Shown here piece by piece: positions 7,846 to 12,140 of a stretch of 64,000 bases of DNA; position 1 is the first letter of the stretch, and every line of letters begins with the position of its first letter. Position numbers and translations under genes: made by a program. The DNA is from an uncultured bacterium (GTDB lineage: Bacteria; Chloroflexota; Anaerolineae; B4-G1): NCBI GenBank assembly GCA_965612745.1, contig CBFDTD010000002.1, positions 36-64,035 on the forward strand, written 5' to 3'. Below the pieces are notes generated by a model that saw only the letters and a list, made by a program, of their open reading frames with translations, did not search any database and was not told where the DNA came from.

Positions 7846-8577
7846 TCAATCCAGCCGCCGCCGTAGGATGACCGCAGCCAGCGCGAAGAGCAGCGCTGTG
7901 AACCCGGCCAGCACCGCCAGATCAAAAGCCATCGGCCAGCCGGGCGTGCCCAGCAGGGCCGCCTCCACAGCCTCTACCGCGTAGGTCAGCGGCAGGGCTC
8001 TGGCCAGCACCTGCAGGACGGCGGGCAGGCGGCTCAGGGGCACGAACACGCCGCAGAGGAAGATCATCGGGAAACGGAGCAGGTTGGCCAGCGTCTGCGC
8101 CTCGAAGACCTCCCGCACGGCCACGGAGACAAGGGCTCCCAGCGCGGAGAAGGCTGCCGTGGAAAGAAGGAGCGCCAGAAACGCCGGGGCCAGACGCCAG
8201 GCCGCCAGGCCGAAGCCGGCGGTCACCCCCACCAGCACCACCGCGCTGATCGCCAGCCCGAAGAGGATCCCGCCCAATACTTTCCCCGCCAGCATCGCCG
8301 GCAGGGTGATGGGGGCCAGCATCAACCGTTCCAGGGCTCCCGTTCGCCGCTCAAAGGTGATGACGATGGCCTCCATCGAGGTGGCACTGAAGAGGGCGGT
8401 CATCGTCACCAGGCCGGGGGCCAGAACCCGCAGGTCGCCGGGGGTGCGGATGGCGAAGGCCAGGATGAGCGCGCCGGGGAAGAGTATCCCCCAACTGATG
8501 TTGGGTGGCTTGAGATAGTAAGCCCGCATGTCCTTGAGGGCGATGTAAAAGATGCCGCGCAGGTCATCACGCCACAT
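7846..8577 (-). CDS. ABC-2 type transporter permease
   Basis: 243 aa, six hydrophobic segments; overlaps the ATPase gene. Confidence 0.8.
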   Translation of the reverse strand: MWRDDLRGIFYIALKDMRAYYLKPPNISWGILFPGALILAFAIRTPGDLRVLAPGLVTMTALFSATSMEAIVITFERRTGALERLMLAPITLPAMLAGKVLGGILFGLAISAVVLVGVTAGFGLAAWRLAPAFLALLLSTAAFSALGALVSVAVREVFEAQTLANLLRFPMIFLCGVFVPLSRLPAVLQVLARALPLTYAVEAVEAALLGTPGWPMAFDLAVLAGFTALLFALAAVILRRRLD

Positions 8578-9481
8578 TGCTACTCCCCTTCTCGGCCAAC
8601 ATTACCTCGGCGCTTAATCCTGTGAGTTCGATGAAAGCCTCCTCCAGCGTGGGTTGAAGTGTGTTTATGGTCACCACCTGCTTCCCCTCTGCCTCGGCAT
8701 GGGCCAAAGCGAGGCGCAGGGCAGCCTCCGTATCCTCGCCGTGAAAGCACAATCGCTCCTCGCCCGCCGCACCGACCAGGTGTACCTCCACCGTGCTCCC
8801 TCGCCGCACCCGGGCCTTGAGTCCCTCCACCGTATCCAGTGCTACGATGTGCCCCTGCACCAGCAGCGCCACCCGATCGGCCAGCCGCTCCGCCTCCTCC
8901 AGGTAGTGCGTGGTCAGGAAGATGGTCACCCCCTCCCCCCGCAGCCGCTCGATGAGCGCCCGCAGCCCGTGGGCGCTGACCACGTCCAGCCCCACCGTCG
9001 GCTCGTCCAGGAAGAGCAGCCGGGGGCGGTGGACCAGCGCGGCGGCCAGGGTCAGCGCTCGCCGCATCCCCCGCGAGAGGCGGGCGAAGGGCACGTCCCG
9101 TTTCCCCTCCAGGCGGAAGCGGCGCAGGAGTTCATCCGCCCGCGCGCCGCGTTCCCGTCGCGGCACACCGTAGAGTTGCATGGCGAAGACCAGGTTATCA
9201 AAGGCCGAGAGTTCGTCGTACAGGTTGGAGCGCTCCGGCACGACCCCGATATGTTTCTTGATACGGGGCAGGTCCCGGCGCAGATCGAACCCCAGCACAC
9301 GGGCATCGCCGGCGGTGGGGCGGGTCAGGCCGGTGAGCATGCGGATGGTGGTCGTCTTGCCGGCCCCGTTGGGCCCCAGCAGGGCGAACACCTCCCCTGT
9401 CCGCACCTCGAAGGAAATGTGGTCCACGGCGATCAGCGAGCCATAGGTTTTGGTCAGATTCTCGGTTTCAATGGCAGGCAT
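8567..9481 (-). CDS. ABC transporter ATP-binding protein
   Basis: Walker A GPNGAGKTT, signature LSRGMRR, Walker B LLFLDEP. Confidence 0.9.
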   Translation of the reverse strand: MPAIETENLTKTYGSLIAVDHISFEVRTGEVFALLGPNGAGKTTTIRMLTGLTRPTAGDARVLGFDLRRDLPRIKKHIGVVPERSNLYDELSAFDNLVFAMQLYGVPRRERGARADELLRRFRLEGKRDVPFARLSRGMRRALTLAAALVHRPRLLFLDEPTVGLDVVSAHGLRALIERLRGEGVTIFLTTHYLEEAERLADRVALLVQGHIVALDTVEGLKARVRRGSTVEVHLVGAAGEERLCFHGEDTEAALRLALAHAEAEGKQVVTINTLQPTLEEAFIELTGLSAEVMLAEKGSSNVA

Positions 9482-9496
9482 AGATCTCCTGCTCCT

Positions 9497-10687
9497 TCAC
9501 GGGCAGCGCACGATGTCCTGTGCCCACAGGCAGTCGGCACAGGAGGGACACCAGCCCCAGCAGCCCTCGTTGGCCTCGGTGATGTCGCACGTGTCCCGCA
9601 GGTCGCAGTCCACGCAGGAGGGGAAGTTGAAGCGGCGCACCTCGGCGCGGAAACGGACGTACTCATCGGAGGTCCAGATCTCCGCCAGGGTGGCTTCATT
9701 GACGTTGCCCAGGGTGTAGCGGGTGACCTCCTTGCGGCGACCAAAGATGTAATAGGGATAGGAGTGGGAGAGGGCGTAGCAAGGGCTCACGCCACCATCC
9801 CAGCCTATCACCGGCGCATTGCTGGCGATGAAGCGGCAGCGCCGCTCCGCTCCCCAGTTCATCCTCGGCAGTTCCAGCGTGCCCCAGAGGAGCCAGTCGC
9901 CGCTTCTGACGGGCCAGCCGGTAGAGAGGGGCAGGGGTGGGGTCTCGTCCCGACCATACAGCGTCTCGGCCGCCATCTCGGGGGTGTGGGGCAGGACGTG
10001 AGTCACGATGACCCGGTTGGCCCCCAGCCGCCGGGCCTGCTCCATCACGGCAGGCAACTCGGCCACGTTACTCTTCAGCGCCACGAACTCGATCCCCAGA
10101 CGGGGGAACGAGGTCCCCCGCTCCGCCTTGATGCGGTTGAGGGTCTCGATGTGGCCCAGCACCGTCCGCAGGTCGGCCCCCCGCCGCACGTCGGCGTAGG
10201 TGTCCGGGTCGGCCCCGTCCAGCGAGACCATGACGACATCCACCCCCAGGTGTACCAGCGCCTCGGCCCGCTCTTCGTCCAGCAGCGTGCCGTTGGTGCT
10301 GACGGTCACCTTGAGGCCCAGGTCCTTGACCGCTGTCAGAAAGTCCAGGATACGGGGGTGGACGAAAGGCTCGCCGTAGCCGCCGAAGACCACCTCGCGC
10401 AGTTCCGGCAGGTCCCGCAGTTGGGCCACGACCCGCTCAAAAGTGGCCGGCGGCATATCTTCCAGCGGCTCATTCCACACGTTGCGCACACAGGTGCGGC
10501 AGTGAAGGTTGCAGCGCGTGGTGGCCTCCAGGTAGACCTTGCGCACATCGGGACGGAGAGGGTGGAGCACCAAGCCGGTCTCCGTCTCCTCCAACAGCAC
10601 TTCGCCGCCGGCCTCCCAGCCATAGCGGCGGCGAAGTGCGGTAGGAATCGTCAATCGTCCGTTGGCATCAAGATTCACTCTGGGCAA
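9497..10687 (-). CDS. radical SAM/SPASM-domain peptide-modifying enzyme with N-terminal AbrB/SpoVT-like swapped-hairpin domain
   Basis: CNLHCRTC (CxxxCxxC) radical SAM motif; Cys-rich C-terminal SPASM region (CYALSH...CVDCDLRDTC...CWGWCPSCADC); N-terminal ~45 aa (GRLTIPTALRRRYGWEAGGEVLLEETETGLVLHP) resembles AbrB/MazE; TTG start 6 nt after a GAGGAGG Shine-Dalgarno. Confidence 0.85.
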   Translation of the reverse strand: MPRVNLDANGRLTIPTALRRRYGWEAGGEVLLEETETGLVLHPLRPDVRKVYLEATTRCNLHCRTCVRNVWNEPLEDMPPATFERVVAQLRDLPELREVVFGGYGEPFVHPRILDFLTAVKDLGLKVTVSTNGTLLDEERAEALVHLGVDVVMVSLDGADPDTYADVRRGADLRTVLGHIETLNRIKAERGTSFPRLGIEFVALKSNVAELPAVMEQARRLGANRVIVTHVLPHTPEMAAETLYGRDETPPLPLSTGWPVRSGDWLLWGTLELPRMNWGAERRCRFIASNAPVIGWDGGVSPCYALSHSYPYYIFGRRKEVTRYTLGNVNEATLAEIWTSDEYVRFRAEVRRFNFPSCVDCDLRDTCDITEANEGCWGWCPSCADCLWAQDIVRCP

Positions 10688-10780
10688 GAGGGACCTCCTC
10701 GAATCTGGCGGTAACTCAATTTTGCCATATCCATCTCACTTGCGTGCTCTTCCCACCGGGAAGATGGCATCCTCCGCTCA

Positions 10781-11217: not shown

Positions 11218-11247
11218 CCGACCGGATGGGCCTTTGAAGAAGTTTCA

Positions 11248-11343
11248 TCAGCCCAGGCAGACCATACGCCAGGCGACGTTGAGGACGCCGCCGTGCTTGC
11301 GGATAAACTCGCGCACCCAGCGGGATGGCAGCATCGCCTTCAT
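11248..11343 (-). CDS. hypothetical 31-aa peptide MKAMLPSRWVREFIRKHGGVLNVAWRMVCLG
   Basis: Found by manual translation; Shine-Dalgarno GGAGG 5 nt upstream of the ATG; very high GC3 (about 27 of 31 codons end in G/C); sits between the Fe-S protein gene and the hairpin. Confidence 0.35.
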   Translation of the reverse strand: MKAMLPSRWVREFIRKHGGVLNVAWRMVCLG

Positions 11344-11394
11344 CGTGACCTCCGTACTCCATTCCTGACTCCACCCCAGGGGGAGGGAAGGGGG

Positions 11395-11946
11395 TCACCT
11401 CTCCCGCGAGCCGATGGCGGGCAGGTCCACGTTTAGCAACTCGGCCAACTTCGCTCGCTGCCCGGCGTACTGGGGCTCCCCGAGTACCGGGCAATCCTCC
11501 AGTTTCACGTGGCCCGCCACCAGTTTGCCGGCGAAGACGAAGCAGGTCGGCTGGCCACAGGCCTTGCAGTTGGTCTGTGGAAGGAGTTTGTAGACCTCCA
11601 CCGGCCCTGGGCGGCGATGCATCTCGTAGTCCGGCTCGATCTCCTCCCGTCGCTCCCAGGTGCGGTTGACCAGTTTCACCAGTCCCTGCGCCACCTTCTC
11701 CGCTTCTGTCCGATCCTCCAGGTCGCCGATGGCGATCTTGTGAGGCCAGAAGGCGATGTTGCGTCCGCCTTTTTTCCAGGATAGCGCGGGGGCCTGGGGG
11801 TTGTAGACTGCACCACGCAGGGTGCGGTTCAGGTAGGGCAGGGCGGGGCTGATGTCCACGTTGAGATGGACAGTGGCGGCGAACTTCTCCGCCCCCGGTT
11901 CGCAGGGGATGGTCTCCACCTCCAGGTCATAGTCCTCGATTAGCAT
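11395..11946 (-). CDS. Fe-S cluster-binding protein with PF04060-like motif (LPxTNCKACGQPTCFVFAGK), as found at the N-terminus of corrinoid/Fe-S protein AcsC
   Basis: 198-aa ORF trimmed to the internal ATG 5 nt after GAGGAGG; the upstream Lys/Arg-rich extension is encoded by the purine-rich ribosome-binding region. Confidence 0.65.
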   Translation of the reverse strand: MLIEDYDLEVETIPCEPGAEKFAATVHLNVDISPALPYLNRTLRGAVYNPQAPALSWKKGGRNIAFWPHKIAIGDLEDRTEAEKVAQGLVKLVNRTWERREEIEPDYEMHRRPGPVEVYKLLPQTNCKACGQPTCFVFAGKLVAGHVKLEDCPVLGEPQYAGQRAKLAELLNVDLPAIGSRER

Positions 11947-12140
11947 ATCATCCTCCTCTGTCGAGCGCCTCCTCCTCTTCCCCTTCATCACCGACCAAAT
12001 AGGTTGCCGCTGACCTCACTGATGCCCGCTCCGGTCACCTCGATGAGCACCTTTCAGCCCCCCCTCCAACCTCTGGCTGCGGCCGGCGTTGTGGATGCAG
12101 ATGAACAGCACCGTCTCCGCCGGCAACCCCCTGGAGCCCT

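Follow-up and report, generated by a model that had tools for sequence, protein, structure and literature searches.

A probable double-selenocysteine gene beside a radical SAM/SPASM enzyme in an ars-type gene string of an uncultured Anaerolineae bacterium

The question raised by the locus

What does a radical S-adenosylmethionine (SAM)/SPASM enzyme do when it is preceded by a set of small genes and followed by an exporter? The question is raised by a locus on contig CBFDTD010000002.1 of an uncultured Anaerolineae bacterium (Chloroflexota, lineage B4-G1), within a stretch of 64,000 nucleotides (nt) that is referred to here as the window. A first-pass annotation, made from the sequence alone, had taken the locus for a maturation system of a ribosomally synthesized and post-translationally modified peptide (RiPP), with three small upstream open reading frames (ORFs), an Fe-S protein and an ABC exporter grouped around the enzyme. 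The coordinates given there hold for all seven ORFs, each of them on the minus strand. The analysis reported here leads to a different reading: two of the small ORFs very probably constitute a single gene, whose product would carry two adjacent selenocysteine (Sec) residues, and on balance we lean towards a soft-metal(loid)/thiol-stress operon with a selenium-dependent module rather than a RiPP system. The central features are as follows.

11395..11991, minus strand: FeS198, a 198-amino-acid (aa) Fe-S protein (Pfam PF04060)
11044..11343, minus strand: putative Sec-Sec protein gene of ~98-99 aa (31-aa and 57-aa ORFs joined), with the motif C29-L-G-U32-U33; near the CC/Se-motif family
11245..11250, minus strand: in-frame UGA-UGA doublet, read as a probable Sec-Sec; TGATGA invariant
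11212..11231, minus strand: hairpin resembling a Sec insertion sequence (SECIS), GCCCAUCC-GGUC-GGAUGGGC; from folding and compensatory changes
10781..11044, minus strand: orf87, an 87-aa protein predicted to form four helices; from homologues and an AlphaFold2 model
9497..10687, minus strand: radical SAM/SPASM enzyme of 396 aa with a TTG start (TIGR04317)
10550..10687, minus strand: SpoVT/AbrB-like N-terminal domain of the enzyme, residues 1-46 (PF04014, borderline)

Two small ORFs in one reading frame

The 31-aa ORF (11248-11343) and the 57-aa ORF (11044-11217) share one frame, with only TGA-TGA and nine sense codons between them. The TGATGA hexamer is kept in 25/25 sequences read (22 of them non-redundant), from genomes of 26-65% guanine-cytosine (GC) content. 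This set includes the window and nine genome-derived loci, together with eleven metagenome loci (among them L058, from the window's own lineage), both tandem paralogues of locus L055 and three very distant homologues with ~30% identity from organisms of 26-39% GC; the metagenome relatives were gathered with a single-sequence query. The nine-codon linker is likewise kept at the protein level, as x-F-F-x-G-x-S-G-R-M-G. No Shine-Dalgarno box lies 5' of the ATG of the 57-aa ORF, in contrast to the 31-aa ATG with its GGAGG, and the distant homologues have no ATG at the position of the 57-aa start.

Homology runs across the junction. Specifically, the joined 99-aa sequence, with the doublet written as CC, matches the NCBIfam model NF041239, 'CC/Se motif family (seleno)protein', over residues 11-70 with E 2.7e-9. 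Exchange of the doublet for alanine lowers the score from 37.0 bits (CC) to 33.6 (CA), 31.6 (AC) and 28.9 bits (AA), losses of 3.4, 5.4 and 8.1 bits, so that both model columns prefer Cys. HMMER handles U as C, and the seed sequences of the model may therefore be CC or Sec-containing. Distant relatives of the protein reach 19-39.4 bits on the same model, and the newer Pfam family PF28096 (CC_Se_fam) is recorded, as a precomputed match, on relatives P0122 and P0136 and on the proteins of loci L053 and L054. In the Pfam scan of the window, the 31-aa, 57-aa and 87-aa ORFs and the joined protein were each without a family match.

The predicted fold is continuous as well. An AlphaFold2 model of the joined protein is a single IscA/HesB-like domain (mean predicted local distance difference test, pLDDT, 92.9) with the doublet in the turn of residues 30-34, at the tip of a β-hairpin. 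IscA, SufA and HesB structures are the top 7-9 matches in fold searches by two methods; a profile of the selenoprotein family gave chance matches only against PDB sequences and found no sequence similarity to IscA/SufA/HesB. Since the two ORFs share a frame and both homology and predicted fold cross their junction, two small genes, not three, would precede the radical SAM enzyme. All three ORFs of the first-pass annotation are present, and the 31-aa ORF does have its own ribosome-binding box, but this ORF and the 57-aa ORF are best taken as halves of one gene, a reading of which we are highly confident on the comparative sequence evidence.

Elsewhere, public databases hold truncated halves only, for instance a 57-aa 'hypothetical protein' from a metagenome-assembled genome (MAG) of Thermoflexia that is 100% identical to the window. 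In the three distant homologues of 26-39% GC (L052:1-928, L053:232-519, L054:287-598), public gene calls give the doublet as Trp-Trp, presumably through use of genetic code 4, and this reading yields the 'GWW' artefact proteins P0268, P0277, P0282 and P0286. Two further arrangements were noted at relatives of this gene. At L055:4213-4922, two tandem Sec-Sec paralogues, each with TGATGA and a GGUC-loop hairpin, adjoin a DGC-domain gene and two FeS198-like genes (2363-2893, minus strand; 3441-4223, with a degenerate PF04060 motif). At L053:642-1230, a distant Sec-Sec gene has as neighbours a Thioredoxin_3 gene and a gene for a 90-aa protein with a Cys-Cys-COOH terminus, which recall SaoT and SaoC of the SAO locus.

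A conserved hairpin behind the doublet

The hairpin lies within the coding sequence, and its apical loop comes 28-31 nt after the U that opens the doublet. In 10/10 sequences folded, a stem capped by GGUC or GGUU forms at the same register, and the distance of the loop is kept in the further sequences that were aligned. Pairing is kept in 88.8% of cells versus 22-41% for slid controls. Two of its pairs show compensatory changes, and L062 and L063 add G-C for A-U. Within the loop, 24/25 sequences use GGU for Gly, even at 65% GC; the remaining one (L068, loop GCUC) has GCU. The bacterial SECIS consensus has G at loop position one or two (PMC13582414). An Rfam scan of the window at gathering thresholds returned two tRNAs only and matched neither a riboswitch nor a SECIS family, and ARAGORN, run on the window and on 28 loci, found no tRNA-Sec. 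Selenoproteins are reported to be numerous in other Chloroflexota (PMC13326102, PMC13582414), and a literature search for natural adjacent Sec residues found nothing relevant.

The radical SAM/SPASM enzyme

The 396-aa enzyme carries the radical SAM motif C59-x3-C63-x2-C66 and matches the Pfam families Radical_SAM (PF04055, E 3.6e-22) and SPASM (PF13186, E 5e-14), as the first-pass annotation had recognized by eye. Its assignment to peptide maturation does not hold up. Residues 47-396 of the enzyme reach 429.8 bits (cutoff 380) on NCBIfam TIGR04317, 'tungsten cofactor oxidoreductase radical SAM maturase', a named non-peptide family, whereas RiPP and related models (PqqE, MftC, ScmE/F, NirJ-type) give 50-69 bits, far under their cutoffs (PqqE 63.6 vs 381, MftC 50.6 vs 265, ScmF 66.5 vs 400). 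No gene of the locus has a Pfam or NCBIfam match to a PqqD or RiPP recognition element (RRE) domain.

The AbrB-like domain that had been proposed at the N-terminus is borderline: residues 8-46 reach 24.2 bits on PF04014 (MazE/SpoVT-AbrB) against a cutoff of 24.7, and 17.8 bits on MraZ. Its motif, G-R-L-x-[LI]-P...G-L-x-L-H-P, is kept in homologues, AOR-linked and more distant alike. As such, the domain is common to the TIGR04317 family, and the idea that it locally substitutes for a RiPP recognition element falls away.

A protein search returned 1,683 homologues at E <= 1e-10. Nearly all of the best 120, which extend to 55% identity, are ~395 aa long with coverage at or near full length, and several of these 120 already carry the TIGR04317 name at NCBI and JGI. 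Three homologues that are ~58% identical over the full length (P0116, P0115, P0078) are encoded in operons of the order AOR (AFOR_N/AFOR_C), radical SAM, MoaD/ThiS-like, in which small ORFs are absent; the comparison of neighbourhoods that the first-pass annotation had suggested thus speaks against its peptide reading. These AOR-linked proteins score 427-433 bits on TIGR04317, equal to the window enzyme. Among the 32 related genome loci (L001-L032, all Chloroflexota MAGs), no AOR or MoaD-like gene was found within 10 kb in 32/32 cases, and the 64-kb window holds no AOR gene.

A second radical SAM/SPASM clade (L028-L031), with 36-40% identity, TIGR04317 scores of 259-284 bits (below the cutoff) and an AbrB-like N-terminus, adjoins ACR3, FmdE, a multi-thioredoxin membrane protein and FeS198. 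A 39%-identical homologue at L027:10001-11239 has an in-frame TGA within its AbrB-like N-region, which could mean that the gene is a pseudogene, that translation truly starts further on, or that the codon specifies Sec. No experimental work on TIGR04317 was found, and a full-text search for the accession returned nothing. A radical SAM gene is described near an AOR gene in Thermococcus (PMC11323500).

The 87-aa protein and the Fe-S protein

For orf87, the features first described are all in place: it has a Shine-Dalgarno box, ends in YYFEGD and lacks Cys, and its ATG overlaps the stop codon of the Sec-Sec gene (TGATG), to which its start, judged from this arrangement, is translationally coupled. 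The protein has 286 homologues from Chloroflexota, nearly all of 87 aa and 67-99% identical over the whole length, with an invariant GEDVGGG loop and a near-invariant tail, IPSLYYFEGD. AlphaFold2 predicts a four-helix bundle (pLDDT 86) with a flexible or disordered tail, and a Foldseek search of this model against the PDB gave nothing below E = 3. Both small proteins, at ~98-99 aa (pLDDT 92.9) and 87 aa (pLDDT 86), are predicted to be folded, which argues against their role as precursor peptides.

Furthermore, orf87 does not behave as a co-conserved substrate of the enzyme. Homologues are absent from 32/32 radical SAM loci taken from genomes, and orf87 occurs mostly away from any radical SAM gene, three sampled contexts outside the window lineage being without an intact enzyme homologue. 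It is found in the order ArsR, ACR3, Sec-Sec gene, orf87 in L050 and L051; in the order ArsP, methyltransferase, Trx_3, FeS198, orf87, ferredoxin, DUF5714, LplA in L048 and L049; and directly 3' of the Sec-Sec gene in L060 and L068. In all six of these loci (L048-L051, L060, L068) the Sec-Sec gene or FeS198 accompanies orf87 and the radical SAM gene is missing. In two loci, an orf87 homologue directly follows a remnant radical SAM gene (L046:5627-5938 and L047:5627-5938), in which an internal deletion fuses residues 1-53 to 346-396; the same island also holds ArsA, LplA, DUF5714 and ferredoxin genes.

FeS198 combines an unassigned N-domain of ~130 aa with a C-terminal domain of the [4Fe-4S] type, PF04060 (CX2CX4CX16C; residues 137-169, E 6e-14), which bears out the motif recognized earlier. 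Sequence matches in the PDB extend over no more than the Fe-S domain at the N-terminus of CFeSP large subunits and RnfB.

Recurrence of the module

The order FeS198, Sec-Sec gene, radical SAM gene persists across diverged Anaerolineae and Thermoflexia contigs while the flanks vary (DegV, ABC and thioredoxin-membrane genes), in agreement with the earlier suggestion of an uncharacterized conserved unit made up of the enzyme, the Fe-S protein and a small ORF next to them. Among the 22 non-redundant Sec-Sec genes, FeS198 is directly upstream in 9/22, the radical SAM gene directly downstream in 10/22 (11/22 with the window, where orf87 lies between), orf87 directly downstream in 4/22 and ACR3 directly upstream in 2/22, one of them L052 with its 26% GC. 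Ten of the 22 loci came via the radical SAM enzyme, a sampling bias in these counts. For loci found via the selenoprotein whose downstream flank measures 500 nt or more, the radical SAM gene is present in ~4/10; for loci found via the enzyme with adequate upstream flank, the Sec-Sec gene is present in ~9/22. The association of FeS198, Sec-Sec gene and radical SAM gene is real, facultative and confined to related lineages.

Recurring neighbours in the related loci are ArsR, ArsP, Trx_3, DGC-domain proteins, OsmC, GcvH, an Lpd-like flavoprotein, ACR3, FmdE and a multi-thioredoxin membrane protein. A reading of these neighbours as genes for molybdenum cofactor biosynthesis and AOR was rejected, as Pfam gave ArsR, DGC, Trx_3, OsmC, GcvH, ACR3, FmdE and others. 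TauE recurs near FeS198 in L002, L005, L014, L059 and L061. Between FeS198 and the Sec-Sec gene, two loci (L008:2953-5936 and L010:1589-4572) contain two paralogous genes of ~310-360 aa; the insert also has a 339-aa gene that by eye resembles BadF/BcrA/HgdC-type ATPases.

The gene string in the window

The module is part of a co-directional minus-strand gene string at 4.4-16.7 kb of the window, with ArsR at its head and probably as the first gene of the operon. The gene order begins with ArsR, a 72-aa Cys-rich protein, Trx_3, an ArsP_1/SO_0444-type permease with a CSC motif, a universal stress protein and two TauE genes; then follow FeS198, the Sec-Sec gene, orf87, the radical SAM gene, the ABC ATPase, the ABC-2 permease, a third TauE gene, a GAF histidine kinase and a response regulator. 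An identical order is found in same-lineage contigs from hydrothermal and Guaymas-type metagenomes. The 31-aa ORF, orf87 and the radical SAM gene each have a GGAGG box 5' of the start. The remaining members of the string are listed from its head.

16328..16702, minus strand: ArsR-family regulator with a Cys-rich tail, CTCPFCRGEC (Pfam HTH_5)
16064..16282, minus strand: 72-aa Cys-rich zinc-ribbon-like protein with CxC and CxxC motifs; recurs together with ArsR in L060, L062, L063 and L067
15732..16010, minus strand: Thioredoxin_3-type small redox protein, CEAC; from the ORF, with PF13192 on the same gene in L038 and L040 and on a homologue
14416..15738, minus strand: ArsP_1/SO_0444-type permease with the CSC motif known from SO_0444/SaoE-type metal exporters and the probable start MSPVVEY (Pfam PF03773, E 1e-63); called as 439 aa in same-lineage contigs
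13764..14441, minus strand: universal stress protein (Pfam PF00582)
12979-13830 and 12141-12902, minus strand: two TauE/SafE-family anion exporters (Pfam PF01925, E 1e-39 to 1e-46)
8567-9481, minus strand: ABC ATPase, DrrA-like (Pfam, NCBIfam)
7846-8577, minus strand: ABC-2 permease, forming a DrrAB-like pair with the ATPase (Pfam, NCBIfam)
6842-7708, minus strand: TauE/SafE-family exporter, the third paralogue (Pfam PF01925, E 1e-39 to 1e-46)
5073-6842, minus strand: GAF-domain histidine kinase, at the distal end of the string
4390-5076, minus strand: OmpR-type response regulator, at the distal end of the string

The ABC ATPase and ABC-2 permease do lie directly downstream of the enzyme, but this adjacency is limited to the window's lineage. 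Sulfite- or selenite-type anions may be substrates of the three TauE paralogues. A 686-aa ORF on the plus strand (8654-10714), antisense to the radical SAM and ABC genes, was rejected as a high-GC artefact (GC1 0.84 > GC3 0.69).

Proposed function and rival explanations

In the reading that we favour, the core of the operon would consist of FeS198, the Sec-Sec protein, in some lineages orf87, and the TIGR04317-family radical SAM/SPASM enzyme. The selenoprotein of ~98-99 aa would be made through two adjacent UGA codons, aided by the SECIS hairpin within the coding sequence, and its scaffold, predicted to be IscA/HesB-like, would carry a β-hairpin whose tip displays Cys29, Sec32 and Sec33; Cys29 is present in most Chloroflexota members. 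Such a Sec-Sec(-Cys) site would be very soft and of low potential, and may either bind a soft metal(loid), for example As(III), or cycle between diselenol and diselenide. ArsR, ACR3, ArsP-type permeases and small thioredoxins repeatedly stand beside the gene, which suggests that the protein binds or relays a soft metal(loid); by analogy with the three-thiolate sites of ArsD and ArsR, As(III) is the obvious candidate. An arsenic-specific mechanism is much less certain than the general proposal.

FeS198 may act as the redox partner of the Sec-Sec protein, as a reductant of its diselenide, and/or donate electrons to the radical SAM cluster, a plausible role since CFeSP and RnfB use a [4Fe-4S] domain like that of FeS198 to pass electrons on. 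The radical SAM enzyme would act on a species bound to the carrier or use the carrier as a partner. Canonical operons place the enzyme beside small MoaD/ThiS sulfur carriers, and in the present module it probably works with or on the small carrier. ArsP-type, TauE and ABC-2 exporters would then remove the products.

A more ambitious form of this proposal, in which the Fe-S protein, the Sec-Sec carrier and the radical SAM enzyme, with or without orf87, make up an undescribed selenium-dependent radical pathway, is distinctly unlikely. In one version, the diselenol would hold an As(III)-like metalloid, the enzyme would adenosylate or alkylate it and the ArsP-type permease would export the organo-metalloid; in the other, the enzyme would post-translationally modify the Sec-Sec hairpin itself. 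If such a pathway exists, reading of adjacent UGAs as Sec-Sec with one SECIS would be routine in natural bacteria, and the name 'tungsten cofactor maturase' would be wrong for part of its family.

Several observations weigh against the operon as we propose it. The score of the joined protein on NF041239, 37.0 bits, is below the curated cutoff of 40. Neither selA, selB, selC nor selD was seen in the window or the related loci, and tblastn with an approximate E. coli SelD query gave no hit; the use of Sec by this organism and the decoding of both adjacent UGA codons by one SECIS are putative. About 60% of the clade's radical SAM loci are without the Sec-Sec gene, and ~60% vice versa, and the association could stem partly from shared Anaerolineae ancestry. 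Counts from promoter and terminator scans were not above those of shuffled controls, so that the boundaries of the operon are putative. A canonical ars operon pairs ArsR with an As(III) efflux pump (ArsB or ACR3), usually along with ArsC. The window holds ArsR and an ArsP_1-type permease, and ACR3 stands beside the Sec-Sec gene in L050-L052; ACR3, ArsB, ArsC and ArsM have no gene in the window, and with no ArsC, ACR3 or ArsM there, arsenic specificity is suggested by context only. Lastly, the TIGR04317 score on a par with AOR-linked proteins means that the enzyme may mature an AOR elsewhere in the genome.

This last point leads to the rival that survives best, namely that the enzyme is an ordinary tungsten-cofactor/AOR maturase with its AOR gene elsewhere, and that the adjacency of FeS198 and the selenoprotein gene is synteny without shared function. 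It accommodates the family score, the ~58% identity over the full length to AOR-linked proteins and the fact that over half of the clade's loci lack the selenoprotein gene. On the other hand, AOR and MoaD-like genes are absent from the 64-kb window and, within 10 kb, from the 32 related loci, the trio of FeS198, Sec-Sec gene and radical SAM gene outlasts its changing flanks, and the second, more distant clade likewise stands beside FeS198 and ACR3. We consider this explanation unlikely, but serious.

The Sec-Sec protein could instead be a dedicated A-type (IscA/HesB-like) carrier of Fe-S or Fe-Se clusters that supplies the radical SAM/SPASM enzyme with its three clusters and/or FeS198 with its own. 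IscA, SufA and HesB are its sole consistent fold matches, its neighbours are Fe-S proteins, and by the order of secondary structures its UU site falls in the β2-β3 turn, where the first cluster-ligand Cys of IscA also sits. Nevertheless, the protein has neither the C-terminal CxC ligands nor any sequence similarity to these carriers, and some Sec-Sec genes have only ArsR and ACR3 beside them, with no Fe-S enzyme nearby, which makes a role as cluster carrier rather improbable.

The reading with which the locus was first presented, a RiPP or peptide-derived cofactor locus in which the enzyme crosslinks or trims the product of a small ORF, for example at the YYFEGD tail, and the ABC pump exports it, is now very unlikely. 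A radical SAM/SPASM enzyme with small genes upstream, a disordered and near-invariant tail on orf87 and the enzyme remnant directly upstream of an orf87 homologue in two loci are what it has in its favour. Set against these are the lack of a PqqD/RRE domain, the low scores on maturase models, the absence of orf87 from the 32 radical SAM loci and of an intact enzyme homologue from the contexts sampled outside the lineage, the conservation of orf87 over its whole length as a predicted folded helical protein, and an exporter that is not conserved. As such, the locus is not worth pursuing as a RiPP cluster. That TGA-TGA is a true tandem stop, with the 31-aa and 57-aa ORFs as separate proteins and the second made by re-initiation, matches the current public annotation and the lack of visible Sec machinery in the window and related loci, yet scarcely deserves credence in view of the 57-aa ATG without a Shine-Dalgarno box and missing from distant homologues, the linker kept as protein, the homology and fold continuous over the junction, the conserved SECIS-like hairpin and the doublet on Cys-preferring columns.

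The selenium-dependent operon that we favour has implications at several levels. Every public record examined gives the Sec-Sec gene split, truncated or, under the wrong genetic code, with Trp-Trp. An invariant Sec-Sec dipeptide across phyla would be unusual, and raises the question of how one SECIS serves two consecutive recoding events. A family hitherto annotated as bare 'hypothetical protein' gains a predicted fold and a genomic setting, namely ArsR/ACR3/ArsP islands, a radical SAM enzyme and an Fe-S partner. In addition, the AOR-less Anaerolineae clade of TIGR04317 may do something other than its name implies.

Comparison with known systems

The radical SAM enzyme is, by length (~395 aa), CxxxCxxC motif, SPASM domain and AbrB-like N-domain, of the same type as other TIGR04317 proteins, encoded by a cmo-type gene beside AOR in Thermococcales and many bacteria. 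The context differs: AOR and MoaD/ThiS genes in the canonical operons, and an Fe-S protein, the putative Sec-Sec protein and ars-type genes in the window. With PqqE, MftC and sactisynthases the enzyme shares the radical SAM and SPASM domains, but the window has neither an RRE/PqqD domain nor a precursor-like peptide.

The joined ORF matches the CC/Se-motif family (NF041239/PF28096) across the Cys/Sec site and shares its Cys-x-x-Sec spacing. A CxxU motif is given for that family (PMC13188914), here extended to C-x-x-U-U. According to a 2026 review, most prokaryotic selenoprotein families have one Sec, and the CC/Se-motif family is listed with one, in contrast to the two adjacent UGA codons in all 25 sequences here. 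The literature search found no published function or gene neighbourhood for this family.

The A-type carriers IscA, SufA and HesB, including known HesB-like selenoproteins, agree with the Sec-Sec protein in predicted fold, in the order of secondary structures and in the placement of the reactive residue or residues in the β2-β3 turn. They have a single Cys at this place, as opposed to the vicinal Sec-Sec proposed here; the C-terminal CxC and sequence similarity are missing, and the genomic context differs.

The As(III) metallochaperone ArsD has a vicinal pair, Cys12-Cys13, and Cys18. The Sec-Sec protein is likewise a small protein of ars-type operons with a vicinal chalcogen pair and a third ligand three residues off, and could, by analogy only, chelate As(III). 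The two are not homologous, ArsD is absent from the fold matches, and the window has no ArsA gene.

The SAO locus comprises selenoproteins with CC/CU motifs, the ArsP-like exporter SaoE, the thioredoxin-like SaoT and SaoC, a protein ending in CC-COOH (Haft & Gwadz, bioRxiv 10.1101/2022.07.06.499078). The shared theme is the combination of Sec or vicinal-Cys motifs with an ArsP-family permease carrying a CSC motif and small thioredoxin-like proteins. No Sao model matched in the window, which has no MerB-like lyase or Sao uptake ABC transporter and holds a radical SAM enzyme and a PF04060 protein instead.

Taken together, the radical SAM family TIGR04317 and the CC/Se family are already named yet uncharacterized, and the selenoprotein belongs to or adjoins the latter. 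Three points appear to be new: a Sec-Sec doublet that is invariant, a module that recurs in ars-type islands and an Anaerolineae clade of 'tungsten cofactor maturases' without a nearby AOR.

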